A stretch of DNA of 64,000 nucleotides from a virus (taxonomy: Duplodnaviria; Caudoviricetes): IMG/VR virus record IMGVR_UViG_3300025387_000009; one strand, 5' to 3'. Shown piece after piece: positions 1-6,311 of the stretch. The translations under genes were made by a program, and so were the position numbers. The notes under the pieces are model-generated. The model was not told where the DNA came from and ran no database searches. It saw only the letters and a list, made by a program, of their open reading frames with translations. Numbering within the stretch: position 1 is the stretch's first letter; each line of letters opens with the position of its first letter.

Positions 1-18
1 ATATAGAATAAGATTATG
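1..18 (+). repeat. Truncated copy of family-A promoter cassette (ATATAGAATAAGATTATG)
   Basis: Identical to the last 18 nt of the 39-nt repeat at 372-410; ends in the ATG of ORF 16..120. Confidence 0.9.
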
Positions 19-120
19 AACATTGATTTAAATTCTAAAACAGTATTTGTCACAATATTTGTAGTGTATTCTATATTTTGTTATACATTTGGCTATGCAA
101 TTGGCAGATTTTTTAAATAA
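16..120 (+). CDS. Small membrane peptide (34 aa, MNIDLNSKTVFVTIFVVYSIFCYTFGYAIGRFFK)
   Basis: Read manually; starts at the cassette ATG; one hydrophobic helix; stop 1 nt before next ATG. Confidence 0.75.
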   Translation: MNIDLNSKTVFVTIFVVYSIFCYTFGYAIGRFFK

Positions 121-121
121 T

Positions 122-376
122 ATGACCAATAGACCTAATTTAACAGAAGAAGAGAAGGAGCACTATAATAAGGTTGCTATGGATAAAATATATGAAAAGA
201 AGATTGTTGATGCAAAGACATATGATCAATGGAGAAAAGAAGCTATTGAAGCATTAGAAAATGCTTTGCCAATGGTTGCTGATTCTGGTGTTTGTGGTAT
301 GTATCCAAACACAGAAGCTGCTGAAAAGATTGCTGATGCTATTATTAATGCTACTCTTTGCAAATTAACTTCTTGA
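122..376 (+). CDS. Hypothetical early protein
   Basis: ORF track 89..376; start moved to ATG 122 because 89-120 belongs to the upstream gene. Confidence 0.75.
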   Translation: MTNRPNLTEEEKEHYNKVAMDKIYEKKIVDAKTYDQWRKEAIEALENALPMVADSGVCGMYPNTEAAEKIADAIINATLCKLTS

Positions 377-410
377 CACCTCCTCCTAAAGCATATAGAA
401 TAAGATTATG
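372..410 (+). promoter_or_regulatory. Family-A promoter cassette CTTGACACCTCCTCCTAAAGCATATAGAATAAGATTATG
   Basis: TTGACA 373-378, 17-nt spacer, TAGAAT 396-401, 6 nt, ATG 408. Confidence 0.92.
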
Positions 411-698
411 AATACAGAACAGAAAGAAGTAAAATGGAATGATAACTTGGTTAAAGAAATCTTGAGAGATTATGCTGCTCCAAAGATTAAAAATCTTATT
501 GATATCCAAAAGCAGAATGGCAACTATAACTATAATGAGTATATGTATGGTATGCTTATTGGATTGGAATGTGCCTATTACAATTTGCTAGAAGAAGAAG
601 CAAAGTTTACAGAGATACCAAAAGAGTGGTTGGCTGATAGAGTTCCTAAGGACTTTGTACCTGAAGTAGCTGAAGATTCTCTTGACACTTCTTCCTAA
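408..698 (+). CDS. Hypothetical early protein
   Basis: ORF begins at cassette ATG; stop lies inside the next cassette spacer. Confidence 0.8.
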   Translation: MNTEQKEVKWNDNLVKEILRDYAAPKIKNLIDIQKQNGNYNYNEYMYGMLIGLECAYYNLLEEEAKFTEIPKEWLADRVPKDFVPEVAEDSLDTSS

Positions 699-719
699 AG
701 CATATAGAATAAGATTATG
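681..719 (+). promoter_or_regulatory. Family-A promoter cassette (2 C>T differences)
   Basis: TTGACA 682-687, 17 nt, TAGAAT 705-710, 6 nt, ATG 717. Confidence 0.92.
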
Positions 720-953
720 AATGAAGAAGAATTAGAAGTTGAGTACCAGAAAATTAAAAGTAAATCTCAACAGGATTATAAAGATTTATTTGGAGCTGAA
801 GCACCATCATTAAAAAGACTTAAAATGATATATAAAGTAAACAAATTTAAAAAACAACTTAAGAACCTTTTTTATACAGTCATTACAACTATTGCAGCAC
901 TCTATGTCTATTATCTAATCTCTGGTGAAGTAATTTGTTTTAAGCATCTTTAA
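717..953 (+). CDS. Hypothetical protein with C-terminal TM helix
   Basis: Cassette ATG; LFYTVITTIAALYVYYLI hydrophobic segment. Confidence 0.75.
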   Translation: MNEEELEVEYQKIKSKSQQDYKDLFGAEAPSLKRLKMIYKVNKFKKQLKNLFYTVITTIAALYVYYLISGEVICFKHL

Positions 954-954
954 A

Positions 955-1191
955 ATGGAACTCATTAAAGAACCTTATCCTCATTATAGAGAAGAAGACA
1001 TCTTCAGCATCCTCAATGATGAAGAGAAGAAGCTATGGTGTAGCTTCATTTATGGTCAAACTGTTCTAGTAAGAGAGGATGGAGGTTCTGGAATCTATGA
1101 GACAGATTGGGATAGGTTTGAGAGAATTTTGAGAAAGAAATCTCTTGATAAGTTGACTGAACAGGCTCAAGAGCTTAAAATGGGATACTAA
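955..1191 (+). CDS. Hypothetical protein ending in LDKLTEQAQELKMGY tag
   Basis: ORF track; C-terminus shared with 7069..7392. Confidence 0.75.
   Translation: MELIKEPYPHYREEDIFSILNDEEKKLWCSFIYGQTVLVREDGGSGIYETDWDRFERILRKKSLDKLTEQAQELKMGY
1153..1181 (+). promoter_or_regulatory. Sigma70-like promoter inside the 3' end of ORF 955..1191
   Basis: TTGACT 1153-1158, 17 nt, TAAAAT 1176-1181; ATG 1193 follows 11 nt later. Confidence 0.65.
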
Positions 1192-1192
1192 T

Positions 1193-1444
1193 ATGATTGG
1201 ATACCAAGATAAGATAAATCAAATCCTTAGAGGAGCAGAGACTATAAAGAATATGAATGATGATATTGATTTGGAGTTATCTGTGTCTGTATTGACAAAG
1301 ACTCTAAAGGATGTTCAGCTGGAAAGAGATGCTCTGTGGGTCAAAACTCAAGAGGATGAGAGGGAGATTAATGATCTCAGAGATGTAAATAATGAGTTGA
1401 GGGATAAAATTAAAAAGCTTGAATTGTCCTTAGAATCTCTATAG
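1193..1444 (+). CDS. Hypothetical coiled-coil protein
   Basis: Heptad-like pattern; its TAG stop is the start of the next -10 box. Confidence 0.75.
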   Translation: MIGYQDKINQILRGAETIKNMNDDIDLELSVSVLTKTLKDVQLERDALWVKTQEDEREINDLRDVNNELRDKIKKLELSLESL

Positions 1445-1456
1445 ACTGTAATAATG
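1418..1456 (+). promoter_or_regulatory. Family-B promoter cassette (diverged)
   Basis: TTGAAT 1419-1424, 17 nt (TGTCCTTAGAATCTCTA), TAGACT 1442-1447, 6 nt, ATG 1454. Confidence 0.8.
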
Positions 1457-1711
1457 ACAACCAAAGCACAAGCTAGAAAGAATCTGAAGAAGGCTGTTAA
1501 GAACTATAATGATATTATGACAAACAAAATTAACCTAGATGTATTTAAAGCTCAACAATCTGAAATTGATAAAGCACAAATAGAATTTAATAATGCTACT
1601 CTTGATCTAATCAAAGATATCTATAAAACTCTGATTATAGGTTTTTTACTTCTTATAATTTTAATGCTTGTAACTTGGGGTTATTTGACATATACTTATT
1701 TTAATCATTAA
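1454..1711 (+). CDS. Hypothetical protein with C-terminal TM helix
   Basis: Cassette ATG; LIIGFLLLIILMLVTWGYL. Confidence 0.75.
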   Translation: MTTKAQARKNLKKAVKNYNDIMTNKINLDVFKAQQSEIDKAQIEFNNATLDLIKDIYKTLIIGFLLLIILMLVTWGYLTYTYFNH

Positions 1712-1725
1712 TATGAAAGAAGAAG

Positions 1726-1764
1726 CTTGAAGTGTCCTAAAGATTCCTATAGACTAAAGGTATG
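1726..1764 (+). promoter_or_regulatory. Family-B promoter cassette CTTGAAGTGTCCTAAAGATTCCTATAGACT
   Basis: TTGAAG 1727-1732, 17 nt, TAGACT 1750-1755, 6 nt, ATG 1762. Confidence 0.85.
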
Positions 1765-1959
1765 ATAACTAGAAATAAATTGTACAACCTATTGTTTGAT
1801 GTAGCACTTTTAGGTGCAACAGATTCAGATGTTTTGAAAGCTGCTAAAAATAAAGATAGAAAAAAATTTGATGATATTTTTTGGGATAAAATGGATGATG
1901 TAGTTCAAGAAATTCTTGATGAATATGATGATGACTATAATCCTAACTTTAAAGATTAA
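1762..1959 (+). CDS. Hypothetical acidic early protein
   Basis: Cassette ATG; ORF track. Confidence 0.75.
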   Translation: MITRNKLYNLLFDVALLGATDSDVLKAAKNKDRKKFDDIFWDKMDDVVQEILDEYDDDYNPNFKD

Positions 1960-1961
1960 TT

Positions 1962-2000
1962 CTTGACACCTCCTCCTAAAGCATATAGAATAAGATTATG
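1962..2000 (+). promoter_or_regulatory. Family-A promoter cassette (identical to 372-410)
   Basis: TTGACA 1963-1968, 17 nt, TAGAAT 1986-1991, 6 nt, ATG 1998. Confidence 0.92.
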
Positions 2001-2213
2001 AATGAAAATAATAAACATCATTATTATATTTCTCCAGAGCAATATGAAAGGCTTTACAAAGAGAACCAAGAGCTAGAAAAGCTTTTAAATGAAGTCATTA
2101 CTTTAGCTGATATTATGAGTGATGAAATCAATCAGAATTGGTGTAAAGAATCAAAACTAGCTGTTGCAAAGTTAAATCTAATTATAGAAAAAGTTGATTG
2201 GGTAAAAGCTTGA
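1998..2213 (+). CDS. Hypothetical early protein
   Basis: Cassette ATG; TGA stop overlaps the next -35 box. Confidence 0.75.
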   Translation: MNENNKHHYYISPEQYERLYKENQELEKLLNEVITLADIMSDEINQNWCKESKLAVAKLNLIIEKVDWVKA

Positions 2214-2247
2214 CACCTCCTCCTAGAGCATATAGAATAAGATTATG
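2209..2247 (+). promoter_or_regulatory. Family-A promoter cassette (1 difference)
   Basis: TTGACA 2210-2215, 17 nt, TAGAAT 2233-2238, 6 nt, ATG 2245. Confidence 0.92.
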
Positions 2248-2424
2248 AAAAATAAGCTATTCAAGTTAAAATATGGAAATGGTTGGTTGGGTAGCAGAAC
2301 AAATATCGGAGCAATCCTAGTGTTAGCACCAGATATTAAAACAGCTAAAAATATTCTCAAAGATAAAATGAATATCAAGCTTGGACATATTGGATCTGCA
2401 ACACAGATTGCATTTTTATCTTGA
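2245..2424 (+). CDS. Hypothetical protein (59 aa, MKNKLFKLKYGNGWLGSRTNIG...), missed by ORF track
   Basis: Read manually from cassette ATG to the TGA overlapping the next -35. Confidence 0.75.
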   Translation: MKNKLFKLKYGNGWLGSRTNIGAILVLAPDIKTAKNILKDKMNIKLGHIGSATQIAFLS

Positions 2425-2458
2425 AGTGTCCTAAAGATTCATATAGACTACAACCATG
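2420..2458 (+). promoter_or_regulatory. Family-B promoter cassette
   Basis: TTGAAG 2421-2426, 17 nt, TAGACT 2444-2449, 6 nt, ATG 2456. Confidence 0.85.
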
Positions 2459-3112
2459 CCTAAGAAAAAAGAACATAAGAAAGTAACTGTTACTTTCGAT
2501 GAAAGACATTTGCCAGTATTGTGTCGTTCTCTGGAGATTTTTATGAGGATGCGTAGCGGTCAGATCACTATGGCACTTGATGAGTGTTATGCTGATAAGC
2601 AAACCAAAATGCTCAAGGATGAGAACTACGATCACTTCAATGACAATAAGGACATTGAGGCTATGATCAGAAAGGTATATTTCAAAGATCTTGGTTCTCC
2701 TAATGCCGCATGGGGAGTTGGTCAGTATGGTTTTGGTGGAGAGGAAGCCTATATGATCTGGAAGACTCTTAGACAGTATATGGCATATGAGAGAAACGAT
2801 GGATATGCTGGATCTGGTCGAGACTTTGATACTACTTGGGGAGCTTATTCAGATGTTCCTAATCCAGTTGTGGAAGGATTTAGTACTAGAAAGTTCTTCA
2901 AAGCTCCAAGTAGTTTACAAGAAAAACTTGAAAAATGGTTTGAAGAAAAGAAGTATCAAGAATGTTATGATCTTATTGATAAGAAATGGAAATCTTTACC
3001 TAAAGGTGACAAATATGAACTTGGTTATCGACTTCCTGATGATCCATCTGAATGGTATAAAAACATTGGTGTATGGGTAACAGCACCAAGAAAGAAAGAG
3101 GAGGGTTGGTAA
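2456..3112 (+). CDS. Hypothetical protein (218 aa)
   Basis: Long ORF from cassette ATG; no family recognised. Confidence 0.85.
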   Translation: MPKKKEHKKVTVTFDERHLPVLCRSLEIFMRMRSGQITMALDECYADKQTKMLKDENYDHFNDNKDIEAMIRKVYFKDLGSPNAAWGVGQYGFGGEEAYMIWKTLRQYMAYERNDGYAGSGRDFDTTWGAYSDVPNPVVEGFSTRKFFKAPSSLQEKLEKWFEEKKYQECYDLIDKKWKSLPKGDKYELGYRLPDDPSEWYKNIGVWVTAPRKKEEGW

Positions 3113-3128
3113 TATTGAATTATCTGCT

Positions 3129-3153
3129 TTAGTTAAAGCGACACTTTAACTAA
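3129..3153. other. Intergenic inverted repeat (possible terminator or operator)
   Basis: TTAGTTAAAG-cgaca-CTTTAACTAA, perfect 10-bp stem. Confidence 0.55.
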
Positions 3154-3171
3154 TAATAAAAAATCAATAAT

Positions 3172-3351
3172 ATGAAAGATCAAAACACAATTAAAGCTGA
3201 AGAAGTAGCACAAAAGATTCTTGGTATTCTTGATGCGTCTGCCGACTGTAAACAATGGCAAGAGATGGTAAATGCTATTCTTACTATTAGTGAAAAATAT
3301 GAGAATGATATTAATGATTTCATTGACCATCCAATCTTAAAACTTATTTAA
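3172..3351 (+). CDS. Hypothetical protein (59 aa, MKDQNTIKAEEVAQKILG...), missed by ORF track
   Basis: Read manually; co-oriented with neighbours; stop abuts next ATG. Confidence 0.7.
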   Translation: MKDQNTIKAEEVAQKILGILDASADCKQWQEMVNAILTISEKYENDINDFIDHPILKLI

Positions 3352-3921
3352 ATGAAAAAAGAAATCAGTACAGAATGTGCCGAATGTCACAGAGATTTTA
3401 TTGCATTGGTCGAGTGTGATGATGTTCTTGAATATCCAGTAAACTTAATTCCAAACTATTGTGAATTTTGTGAAAAAGAAATGAAGACTATTGGTAATGG
3501 TTGGATGGGTACTATTACCGCCGCTTCTATTCCTCAAAGAAATGTAGAAGGACTAGAAGAGTCACTTCAGACTTTGGCAACTAGTATTGTACATTCGCAA
3601 AATGCTACAGATGAAAGTATAGGTAAGTTAAAGGATGATTTTAGAGCATTTAAGAAACATGCTGAATATGATATTGAGCAGAATACTAATAACATTACTG
3701 AGACAAGAGAGACTTTGCATAGTACAATCAATCTTACCTTTGAACAAGGAAAGAAGATTGAGGAACTTAATAAGCAGAATCACAATAGATTTGCTGAGAT
3801 CAATCATATTGAATATATTATTATTCCAAAAATCAGAACTCTTCTCATTGCTCTACATATTATGGTTCTTGGATTGTTTATATTTGACTTGGGAGTAGTT
3901 TGGTATATTATTAAGCACTAA
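3352..3921 (+). CDS. Zn-ribbon / coiled-coil / C-terminal TM protein
   Basis: CAEC...CEFC pairs, coiled-coil middle, hydrophobic C-terminus. Confidence 0.75.
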   Translation: MKKEISTECAECHRDFIALVECDDVLEYPVNLIPNYCEFCEKEMKTIGNGWMGTITAASIPQRNVEGLEESLQTLATSIVHSQNATDESIGKLKDDFRAFKKHAEYDIEQNTNNITETRETLHSTINLTFEQGKKIEELNKQNHNRFAEINHIEYIIIPKIRTLLIALHIMVLGLFIFDLGVVWYIIKH

Positions 3922-4097
3922 TGAACACAAAGACAATTGAAAATCTATTAGTAGCAATAAATGCAATTGCAATCTTTGTAATGATTGCTTTAGTTGTTCC
4001 ATTTATCTTTGGTGCAGTATTTTGGCTTGTAAAGTTTTTTACACCATATTATCATTGGGTGTATAGTTTGTTTGGAGCACAGAATTATTTTAATTGA
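3921..4097 (+). CDS. Small membrane protein (58 aa, MNTKTIENLLVAINAIAIFV...)
   Basis: Read manually; TAATG overlap with upstream gene; long hydrophobic run. Confidence 0.7.
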   Translation: MNTKTIENLLVAINAIAIFVMIALVVPFIFGAVFWLVKFFTPYYHWVYSLFGAQNYFN

Positions 4098-4098
4098 T

Positions 4099-4191
4099 AT
4101 GAACATAACACTAGATCACAATATAGCAGTTTTAATGTCTGTTTTGTTTGCTTATTTTCTAGGCTATGCATTAGGCAAATATTCAAAGTAA
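4099..4191 (+). CDS. Small membrane peptide (30 aa, MNITLDHNIAVLMSVLFAYFLGYALGKYSK)
   Basis: Read manually; 1-nt gaps on both sides; resembles 16..120. Confidence 0.7.
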   Translation: MNITLDHNIAVLMSVLFAYFLGYALGKYSK

Positions 4192-4192
4192 T

Positions 4193-4627
4193 ATGAAGCA
4201 TTATAGAATTCAAAGATACTTTAGTAATTTCTGGAGCTTTATAGATGGTATTGAGTATAATTCATATGAAGATGCTGAAAAGGCTATTAAGGAACATTAT
4301 CCAGAACAAAATACAAGAATTGTTGATGTCTTTGAAGAAGATGGCATTGACATTGAAGAGAGCTCTTATGAAAGCCCTTATTGCCCAGTTTGTAAAAGCT
4401 GTGGAGAGGAAGGATGTTGTAGTGTAGGGAAGTCTCTTCTTGGACATGGATGTAAATATGGCAAATGGTATGCAAGGGATGTTTATCAGAATGAGATGAT
4501 CATTGATGAGTTCCATAAGCTCTTTGATGAGAATGGAAAGTATCTAGGATGTGATGGTAATCCTATTGAGGTAGTATATAATAATGCTTTTGATAGAACA
4601 AAGGAGAAATATGGAAAAGGAAATTGA
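4193..4627 (+). CDS. Cys-rich hypothetical protein
   Basis: CPVCKSCGEEGCC...C motif. Confidence 0.75.
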   Translation: MKHYRIQRYFSNFWSFIDGIEYNSYEDAEKAIKEHYPEQNTRIVDVFEEDGIDIEESSYESPYCPVCKSCGEEGCCSVGKSLLGHGCKYGKWYARDVYQNEMIIDEFHKLFDENGKYLGCDGNPIEVVYNNAFDRTKEKYGKGN

Positions 4628-4802
4628 TTGTTCATTTACAAGAGATGTTGTTTGTCCTCATTGTGGTTATAAGTTTAAGGACTCATATGAATTTTTTGAA
4701 TATCATGGTCAAGGTGTTGACTTAGAGTGTGATGAATGTGGTAAAGAGTTTATTGCCTATAGTCACATTACTATAGATTATAGTTCACATAAGAAGAAAT
4801 AA
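4611..4802 (+). CDS. Small Zn-ribbon protein
   Basis: CPHC...CDEC; start moved to ATG 4611. Confidence 0.7.
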   Translation: MEKEIDCSFTRDVVCPHCGYKFKDSYEFFEYHGQGVDLECDECGKEFIAYSHITIDYSSHKKK

Positions 4803-4803
4803 T

Positions 4804-5082
4804 ATGAATAATGACATCTATCCACCAGTAACAGACATTCCACCAGAGATCATTGCTGCAGCTAAAGTCCTATACAATTGGATGGAGATGCATAATGTAG
4901 AAGCATTTGATGGTGTTGTTAATAGAAAGAAGTATGAAAAACTTTCTGAGCTTTACTATGAGCTAATTCTAAATGTTTCTAGTTGTTATGAAAATGAGAC
5001 TAGACATCAGACAGCTTTGAGATATATTAAGCAGATGGAAAAATTTGCTTATGATGAGACAACAGAAAAGGCTATAAAATAA
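4804..5082 (+). CDS. Hypothetical protein
   Basis: ORF track; 1-nt junctions on both sides. Confidence 0.7.
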   Translation: MNNDIYPPVTDIPPEIIAAAKVLYNWMEMHNVEAFDGVVNRKKYEKLSELYYELILNVSSCYENETRHQTALRYIKQMEKFAYDETTEKAIK

Positions 5083-5083
5083 T

Positions 5084-5392
5084 ATGAGAGGAGAATGCAG
5101 ATACTGTGGCTTTGTTGCTAAATGGGCAAATGAAAGCTGCTGGTGTGGTGCATTATCTAATCCAGAAAGAAAACCAACTCATCCAGAAAATATGAAGAAA
5201 GAAGAAAAGATTATTGAACTGCTTGAAATGATTGTAAAGCAGAATGAAGAGATTATAAAAAATCAAAACATTTGGAGAACTCTTCCAACTGTTCCAGTAC
5301 CTCCAAACATTGATCCTCATTTTGGAAAAGACATTCCTTATAAGCCATACTTTGGACCAACTTGTGAACACACTAACAATACAAATCTCTAG
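5084..5392 (+). CDS. Hypothetical protein (N-terminal Cys motif, Pro-rich tail)
   Basis: CRYC...CWC; ORF track. Confidence 0.65.
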   Translation: MRGECRYCGFVAKWANESCWCGALSNPERKPTHPENMKKEEKIIELLEMIVKQNEEIIKNQNIWRTLPTVPVPPNIDPHFGKDIPYKPYFGPTCEHTNNTNL

Positions 5393-5412
5393 GTAAATGT
5401 GTTCTTTGTTTT

Positions 5413-5508
5413 TTAATATAGTCTCTTAAGTCTACAAAGACTACAAAGACCAAAATATAATGGAACAATTGTAACGAGGATTAATGTATCTAGTATTATG
5501 TTTTTCAT
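5413..5508 (-). CDS. Possible small hydrophobic peptide (31 aa, MKNIILDTLILVTIVPLYFGLCSLCRLKRLY)
   Basis: Read manually in an otherwise empty gap. Confidence 0.35.
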   Translation of the reverse strand: MKNIILDTLILVTIVPLYFGLCSLCRLKRLY

Positions 5509-5569
5509 AACAAAAATACTTATCCCAATAAGATACAAAATAACTACTTGATTGGTCGTTATTAAAGGA

Positions 5570-5575
5570 TAAGTA
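5570..5575 (+). promoter_or_regulatory. Late-type promoter motif TAAGTA
   Basis: 7 nt before ATG 5583. Confidence 0.5.
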
Positions 5576-5582
5576 AAATACT

Positions 5583-6311
5583 ATGAAAAAGTTTACAACT
5601 CTATTAACAATATTATTGATTTCTATTTCAGCATATGCTGGTGATAAAGAGCCAATACCATTAACATCAACCAATACACCAATCACTTATTCGATTGGGG
5701 CGAAGTATCAGGGAGGTAGTGTTTCAACTTTAAAAAATGGAAAGTGGACAGGTTATGGTTGGGCAAATAAAGAGACAGCGGTATTGAGAGCAGACTTCCA
5801 CAATGGTCTTGAACTTATTTTTGAAGATTATTTAACCGAGAATCAGGTTAAAACATCTTCTACAAAGATAACTTCTAAGACTACAACAGTTAATCATCAT
5901 AAGGTTATTACAAAGACAACCACAACTACTCATAAGACAACTGAAGCAACGGCTGGTGGATTTGAAATTAAACCTAGATATACCTTTCATCTTACAAAGA
6001 AATTAGATTTTGGTTTACAAGTTGGTTTAGGAGATAGTTATGGTATACATAATACAGCTTTAGTTAATAAGTTCTATTATATTGGTGAGGCTCGTTTTGT
6101 TTATAAAGTTAATGATTGGTTAAAATTAAGAACAAGTTTCCAAATCCAAAATCCATTTAATACTCAATATGACAATTGGGTTAATACAGTTAAAGTTGGT
6201 CCTGATATTAGAATTACAAAGAATATTGATACTACTATATCTTATGTTAATAATTTTGGTGGAACTCAACATGGTAACGCGTTTGAAACCGCACTTAATT
6301 ATAGATTTTAA
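5583..6311 (+). CDS. Secreted, outer-membrane beta-barrel-like protein
   Basis: Signal peptide MKKFTTLLTILLISISAYA; alternating amphipathic strands; C-terminal ALNYRF beta-signal. Confidence 0.7.
   Translation: MKKFTTLLTILLISISAYAGDKEPIPLTSTNTPITYSIGAKYQGGSVSTLKNGKWTGYGWANKETAVLRADFHNGLELIFEDYLTENQVKTSSTKITSKTTTVNHHKVITKTTTTTHKTTEATAGGFEIKPRYTFHLTKKLDFGLQVGLGDSYGIHNTALVNKFYYIGEARFVYKVNDWLKLRTSFQIQNPFNTQYDNWVNTVKVGPDIRITKNIDTTISYVNNFGGTQHGNAFETALNYRF

Follow-up and report, generated by a model that had tools for sequence, protein, structure and literature searches.

The first 2458 nucleotides (nt) of a 64,000-nt stretch from the virus record IMGVR_UViG_3300025387_000009 (this whole stretch is called the window below) carry an array of small genes and short repeated units, in which a sigma70-like promoter runs directly into a start codon. 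The source is an uncultured T4-like myophage with a G+C content of 32%. We consider it likely that the repeats are early promoters for the primary sigma factor of the host, that they give leaderless mRNAs, and that they double as recombination patches in a T4-like hyperplastic region.

Two families of units make up the array. Family A has five copies. Four are complete, at 372, 681, 1962 and 2209, with 0, 2, 0 and 1 mismatches to the 39-nt motif, and bases 1-18 equal the last 18 nt of the unit, a copy cut by the window edge. Family B has three copies (1418, 1726 and 2420), where 0 are expected by chance. The original prediction of five A and three B copies at these positions was confirmed by the 39-nt matches, as 100 dinucleotide shuffles gave no family-A match. 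It had also proposed one fixed geometry (-35 hexamer, 17 nt, -10 hexamer, 6 nt, ATG), and a regular-expression scan recovered TTGAnn-N17-TAGAnT-N6-ATG in all 7 complete copies. Both motifs were then sought throughout the 64 kb. A relaxed search (up to 6 mismatches) found no A or B copy beyond those in 1-2458. One unit spans about 41 nt, and each cassette ATG is the first start codon of an open reading frame (ORF) of 34-218 amino acids. The features of the array are as follows.

1-18, plus strand: family-A promoter, window-edge copy (-10 hexamer, 6-nt discriminator, ATG), identical to the last 18 nt of the unit
16-120, plus strand: ORF of 34 amino acids, hydrophobic, begins at the cassette ATG
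122-376, plus strand: ORF of 84 amino acids without its own promoter; TGA stop within TTGACA of the next promoter
372-410, plus strand: family-A promoter and ATG (TTGACA, N17, TAGAAT, N6, ATG)
408-698, plus strand: ORF of 96 amino acids; TAA stop within the next promoter's spacer, hence the C-terminus LDTSS
681-719, plus strand: family-A promoter and ATG, 2 mismatches
717-1444, plus strand: three-gene unit behind one promoter (ORFs 717-953, 955-1191 and 1193-1444)
1418-1456, plus strand: family-B promoter and ATG (TTGAAT, N17, TAGACT, N6, ATG)
1454-1711, plus strand: ORF of 85 amino acids
1726-1764, plus strand: family-B promoter and ATG
1762-1959, plus strand: ORF of 65 amino acids
1962-2000, plus strand: family-A promoter and ATG, exact
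1998-2213, plus strand: ORF of 71 amino acids
2209-2247, plus strand: family-A promoter and ATG, 1 mismatch
2245-2424, plus strand: ORF of 59 amino acids; TGA stop within the -35 hexamer of the next promoter
2420-2458, plus strand: family-B promoter and ATG
2456-3112, plus strand: ORF of 218 amino acids, the most widely conserved gene of the region

The array had been described as a series of single-gene cassettes. Promoter-bounded one-gene units do exist, but the three ORFs of 717-1444 share a single promoter, and 122-376 lacks one.

Family A matches TTGACA/TATAAT at 11 of 12 positions with a spacer of 17 nt, the optimal length, measured against the E. coli consensus, which may not be that of the host. 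Promoters of the sigma70 type usually initiate at the seventh nucleotide after the -10 hexamer, and with a gap of 6 nt this position therefore falls on the A of the ATG. The nucleotide at -1 is T or C in 6 of the 7 complete copies, and all 8 units end in ATG, which leaves no space for a leader. No Shine-Dalgarno motif is present, and the earlier description of consensus-like sigma70 promoters that abut start codons thus holds. We infer that the units are leaderless starts, with the 5' end of the transcript on the A of the ATG. The gap of 6 nt is found in 7/7 complete copies of the window and, among relatives, in 39/54 A copies, 11/14 B copies and 32/45 further copies. The discriminator keeps its length while its sequence varies (about ten different hexamers across relatives), and the three B copies in the window have three unrelated discriminator hexamers.

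The same arrangement was found outside the array. TAnnnT stands at a gap of 6 nt before 16/90 window genes, the helicase gene among them, against a background of about 3; the gap is 7 nt before the RecA-like gene and 8 nt before the DNA polymerase. The T4-late-type motif TAA[AG]TA peaks at a gap of 5-7 nt before the ATG of another 16/90 genes, all within 5583-58472 (for example, the starts at 5583, 28820, 29388, 31093, 31936, 43774 and 53974). Late genes also look leaderless by this measure. Shine-Dalgarno-like 4-mers precede only 9/68 long ORFs of the window. The cultured T4-like control HTVC008M, in contrast, has no gap-6 peak and has Shine-Dalgarno-like motifs before 101/186 genes, with a smaller TAA[AG]TA peak at 5 nt (12 genes). 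The gap-6 and late-motif peaks, the scarcity of Shine-Dalgarno motifs and the contrast with the control indicate that the array is the densest part of a putative genome-wide layout, leaderless and free of Shine-Dalgarno sequences.

The units also take in the ends of the upstream genes. In 42 of 70 distinct A copies the stop codon of the upstream ORF lies inside the promoter, either as TGA of TTGACA (18 copies) or as TAA of the spacer, which gives an LDTSS tail (24 copies). Because this stop lies in the promoter spacer, unrelated proteins end in the same LDTSS tail, and we read these shared C-termini as by-products of the promoter and not as a protein tag. A stem-loop or a terminator was considered as a further component and was ruled out: 79-nt folds around all 7 copies were no better than shuffles (z = -0.24 to +2.17), and no terminator-like site was found between the units. 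Rfam gave no match to known RNA families. From its layout, the unit appears to be a compact stop-promoter-start junction without intergenic DNA. Since there are no terminators, longer read-through transcripts from upstream promoters are probable.

Two side observations concern the B copies. A five-codon minigene (MKEEA-stop) at 1714-1731 overlaps the B promoter at 1726. Upstream of the B copies there is a purine-rich GAAGAAGC stretch that is conserved in relatives, where it usually codes for the end of the upstream protein.

The units are conserved across many contigs. The exact 38-nt sequence was found in 13 IMG/VR contigs, and a protein-guided metagenome scan added 15 more loci. A core of 29 nt, spacer included, is nearly invariant in more than 100 copies from about 25 environmental contigs. 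Across 54 A copies, taken from 17 loci, conservation is 90% or more at each position of the core, again including the spacer, and it falls to about 40% within a few bases of its flanks. One T4-like carrier (G005) has an identical core although its PolB is only 50% identical to that of the window. The identical core is also present in a second, unrelated lineage (G002, G004 and G007), of which G002 and G004 have a DnaE-type polymerase.

G002 (IMGVR_UViG_3300042884_001120; L017-L024) is a complete genome of 154,360 bp with terminal repeats. Its terminase differs from that of the window, and we detected no homologue of the PolB, TerL, sheath or gp46 of the window in it. It shares with the window the A and B promoters, about 25 accessory genes and a ribonucleotide reductase at 86% amino acid identity, and this sharing points to a possible common early-gene pool across the lineages. 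Shine-Dalgarno motifs are scarce in G002 as well (15/145), and 18/47 strong promoter-like sites have the gap of 6 nt, many of them with other spacers.

At fourfold-degenerate sites, identity between the window and G002 is 39-40% in the ribonucleotide reductase genes, a saturated level, and 67% in the 218-amino-acid gene. The original prediction had read the near-identity of the spacers as a sign of recent copying. This does not hold, because a core that is identical across lineages with saturated neutral sites cannot be explained by recent copying within this genome. For the spacer to stay invariant, the whole unit would have to be under long-term purifying selection, or phages that infect the same cell would have to keep exchanging it, or both.

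Homologous recombination between the copies had also been predicted, and individual junctions in relatives support it. Each relative has different gene families downstream of its promoters. The sole recurring block is an A promoter, the 34-amino-acid membrane gene, a coiled-coil gene and a B promoter. Gene content and order between copies, which the original prediction had singled out for comparison, are thus not kept. Two one-unit, promoter-bounded indels were found. In contig L038, the left part of a hybrid promoter and its 357-bp left flank match an A copy of L039 (96.6%), while its right part and the 218-amino-acid gene match a B copy of L039. The intervening 439 bp, with one gene, are absent from L038, and the crossover lies in a shared CATATA. 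Similarly, G001 has one A copy where G007 has two neighboring ones. It is flanked on the left like the first of these and on the right like the second (flanks 97-98% identical), and a 465-bp unit of promoter and 143-amino-acid gene is present in G007 and absent from G001. In-register A/B chimeras occur at L036:237 and L037:5855, with the crossover in a shared TCCT at positions 9-12. Crossovers lie at varied points of the unit (positions 9-12 or 22-27).

These indels and chimeras are the products expected of homologous exchange between copies, as for the promoter-early stem-loops (PeSLs), which are mobile regulatory cassettes of the T4-type phages RB49/phi1, T4/PST and KVP40/nt-1 (Arbiol et al. 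2010, PMC2839356; Comeau et al. 2014, PMC4122927). The comparison with relatives shows deletions, insertions and swaps of genes at the units.

Taken together, we propose that host RNA polymerase with its primary sigma factor would read the units early, within a hyperplastic region. Each unit would have three functions. It would stop the upstream gene in two reading frames, act as a near-consensus -35/17/-10 promoter, and place the ATG of the next gene 6 nt past the -10 hexamer, which would give a leaderless mRNA. On read-through RNA, the AT-rich and unstructured promoter could act as a ribosome entry region without a Shine-Dalgarno sequence. Being nearly identical everywhere, the unit would also be a homology patch, both within a genome and between phages of one gene pool. 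There, the recombination machinery of the phage itself (RecA/UvsX-like and gp46-like Rad50/SMC proteins) may delete, insert or swap expression-ready genes.

Several observations weigh against this proposal. In relatives, the gap is 7-11 nt in about a quarter of the copies, whose leaders would then be 1-5 nt long. Within 1-3300, 7 of 27 distinct homology endpoints fall at units, versus 14% expected (p = 0.08). Breakpoints are thus modestly enriched at the repeats, which is suggestive, and many lie inside genes. As the enrichment is weak, the case for recombination rests on the individual junctions described above. One breakpoint inside a gene is seen in metagenome contig L025, which is 100% identical to window 2077-5519. 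Upstream of this (L025:1-300) it carries a 91% copy of gene 4804-5082, joined in frame inside ORF 1998-2213 at AGCTTT (6-nt microhomology). This junction may be a recent intragenic recombinant or a chimeric metagenome assembly; if it is genuine, recombination here would not depend on the repeats. The exact 29-nt core was absent from 185,579 bacterial and archaeal species genomes. The label of host sigma70 rests on likeness to the E. coli consensus, which may not be that of the host. Finally, plain sigma70 promoters do not usually keep their spacer invariant, and that this one does hints at a further constraint.

Mosaicism is also found within the genes of the array, where several of the small proteins are themselves mosaics. 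The C-terminal module of ORF 1998-2213 (from 2078) has other N-termini in relatives and in L025. ORF 717-953 is a fusion. From 852 on, it equals the 34-amino-acid membrane gene, which stands directly behind an A promoter in five relatives, and the window has a different 45-amino-acid N-terminus where the relatives have the promoter. The coiled-coil family (1193-1444 and relatives) has several members in each genome. They range from 83 to 266 amino acids and contain internally mosaic segments, which suggests repeat-mediated length variation. The first 31 amino acids of ORF 122-376 are found again in three relatives, ORF 408-698 has homologues in relatives that are 82-85% identical, and the 218-amino-acid gene follows either a B promoter or a hybrid of A and B in relatives.

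The invariant spacer could mean more than a promoter repeat inside one lineage. We tentatively consider that unrelated phage lineages, all infecting a single host without Shine-Dalgarno use, share the 41-nt unit as a portable junction that is under selection. Such a junction would combine a maximal leaderless signal with the homology needed for trade of early genes between T4-like and DnaE-type phages, and its spacer may also bind a factor. If this is true, the unit would be a cross-family gene-exchange module, and not a lineage-internal promoter repeat.

There is also some chance that each unit is a promoter plus an operator, and that recombination is a by-product. The 17-nt spacer would then bind a phage or host protein (a repressor, an activator or a polymerase-modifying factor) that switches the early set. 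This idea is compatible with the leaderless early promoters that we favor and adds to them. The spacer is as conserved as the hexamers in the 54 A copies, even between lineages with saturated neutral sites, and the split of the spacers into two distinct types, A and B, could correspond to two classes of regulation. However, on direct reading the spacer has no dyad symmetry or operator-type repeat apart from a (CCT)3 tract, and searches of the ten array ORFs yielded no DNA-binding domain. Early promoters must also fire before any phage protein is made. The A/B chimeras stay in register and persist, suggesting that either half can function.

We find it unlikely that the mRNAs have leaders and that transcription starts elsewhere or far upstream. 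In that case the fixed distance would reflect a translation-initiation region on polycistronic RNA, with the conserved AT-rich sequence as a ribosome landing pad without Shine-Dalgarno pairing and the hexamers partly coincidental. The lack of terminators between units fits this, as do unit regions that fold less than shuffled sequence, stops 20-35 nt before the next ATG (a distance suited to reinitiation), and the genes at 955 and 1193, which would be expressed without their own promoters. However, the strongest conservation is of the exact TTGACA and TAGAAT hexamers at 17-nt spacing, and the discriminator is conserved in length and not in sequence. The G002 promoters with unrelated spacers also keep the gap of 6 nt (18/47 sites).

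Still less probable is a polymerase or sigma factor specified by the phage, which would explain a recognition sequence of about 30 invariant nt. Long invariant promoters are typical of phage-specific polymerases, and none of the bacterial species genomes searched contains the core. Against this, the -35 and -10 hexamers and their spacing fit the sigma70 consensus, and other genes of the window and of G002 use the same hexamers with free spacers. The units are also common to two lineages with different replication and packaging modules, and T4-like phages use the host polymerase for early genes (PMC2839356, PMC4122927).

Recent intragenomic duplication, an assembly artefact or site-specific (integron-like) recombination would account for near-identical copies within 2.5 kb, but these are hardly credible and already largely refuted by the same units in about 25 independent contigs from many samples, by flanks that diverge sharply at the unit edges, by the absence of an integrase or recombinase domain from the ten array ORFs, and by crossovers that vary within the unit (positions 9-12 or 22-27).

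The rest of the window is consistent with the assignment to T4-like phages. It encodes a T4-type TerL, PolB, a tail sheath, a DnaB-type helicase, a gp46-like SMC/Rad50 protein and a ribonucleotide reductase, and a RecA/UvsX-like gene was assigned by position. The closest cultured relatives are very distant, with a terminase identity of about 33% at most, and PolB is 31% identical to those of Pelagibacter phages. A megablast search of 1-6000 against 50,697 phage records gave no match. The ten array ORFs gave neither a significant Pfam match nor a PHROG family with a known function, as expected of a T4-type hyperplastic early region.

A separate observation bears on the host. The phage encodes an outer-membrane beta-barrel protein with a signal peptide at 5583-6311, whose relatives are mostly viral or from Pseudomonadota. 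An outer-membrane protein in a phage implies a putative diderm host. The protein had no relative in the 185,579 bacterial and archaeal species genomes, and an Atlas look-up gave a mere hint of Pseudomonadota.

Repeated early promoters that act as recombination seams are known in T4-type coliphages and vibriophages (PMC2839356, PMC4122927). What goes further here is that the unit is reduced to a promoter and a start codon, and that early, replication and late genes have the same layout. This points to a whole infection program that runs on leaderless or Shine-Dalgarno-free translation in a T4-like phage. We found no description of such a program; in the literature on leaderless T4-like phages or cyanophages we met reference-list mentions only. 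The original prediction knew of no leaderless version of these cassettes, and we too found none in the literature on T4-like phages. The spacer is conserved across phages with saturated neutral sites, and a plain sigma70 promoter needs no such conservation. The identical unit and about 25 accessory genes are present in a lineage with other replication and packaging genes, suggesting that the repeat may be the homology that enables gene flow between phage families.

Leaderless mRNAs have precedents in other phages. Shean and Gottesman are said to have shown in 1992, with RNA data, that lambda cI is leaderless when transcribed from PRM. The middle and late genes of the Thermus phage phiYS40 are reportedly leaderless too, in RNA data attributed to Sevostyanova and colleagues (2007). 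A pattern of a '-10 region adjacent to ORF' has been described in Deinococcus-Thermus (PMC12340547). As in these three systems, the -10 hexamer of the array units lies a few nt before the ATG, without a Shine-Dalgarno sequence. A transcript start at or next to the start codon is supported there by RNA data, and is predicted here from the geometry. Unlike them, the array repeats a full -35/-10 promoter almost identically, in a T4-like phage, and this promoter doubles as a recombination seam.

The likeness to integron cassettes that was proposed at first is only an analogy. Both are arrays of short, unrelated, promoter-dependent genes with a repeated boundary element and cassette-wise gain and loss. 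The resemblance does not extend to the mechanism, as the ten array ORFs showed no recombinase domain and the crossover points vary. Unlike integrons, the array has no integrase among these ORFs (Pfam and PHROG), no attC hairpins at the boundaries and no fixed crossover. Its boundary is a promoter and a start codon, and the exchange looks homologous.

The morons of lambdoid phages, described by Hendrix and colleagues, are self-contained transcription units that lie between phage genes and are exchanged horizontally. The array units resemble them as transcription units inserted between phage genes and in their horizontal exchange. Morons have their own terminator and no common repeated boundary sequence, and the array units differ in both respects.

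PeSLs have a stem-loop terminator, their 3' end consists of a Shine-Dalgarno sequence and a start codon, and homologous exchange between copies has been shown (PMC2839356, PMC4122927). Excised mini-circles are a further trait of these cassettes. Like PeSLs, the array units are repeated strong sigma70-like early promoters (here predicted) in a T4-like hyperplastic region, mostly before ORFans. They too stand at indels and replacements between relatives, and a unit-sized deletion between neighbors leaves one chimeric copy. We also observed degraded units at L030:344, L035:7766 and L037:8776, in which the -35 hexamer and the spacer are kept and the -10 hexamer is replaced by an ATG-containing sequence. 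These resemble the 'half PeSLs' of Comeau et al. 2014 (PMC4122927). Unlike PeSLs, the units have no stem-loop and no Shine-Dalgarno sequence, only 6 nt separate their -10 hexamer from the ATG, the promoter contains the end of the upstream gene, and the spacer is invariant. They also occur in a lineage outside the T4 group, one with a DnaE-type polymerase. As two defining parts of PeSLs, the stem-loop and the Shine-Dalgarno sequence, are absent, we class the units as a variant of PeSLs and not as a member. PeSLs, which the original prediction had named as a precedent, are nevertheless their closest match in function and evolutionary role.

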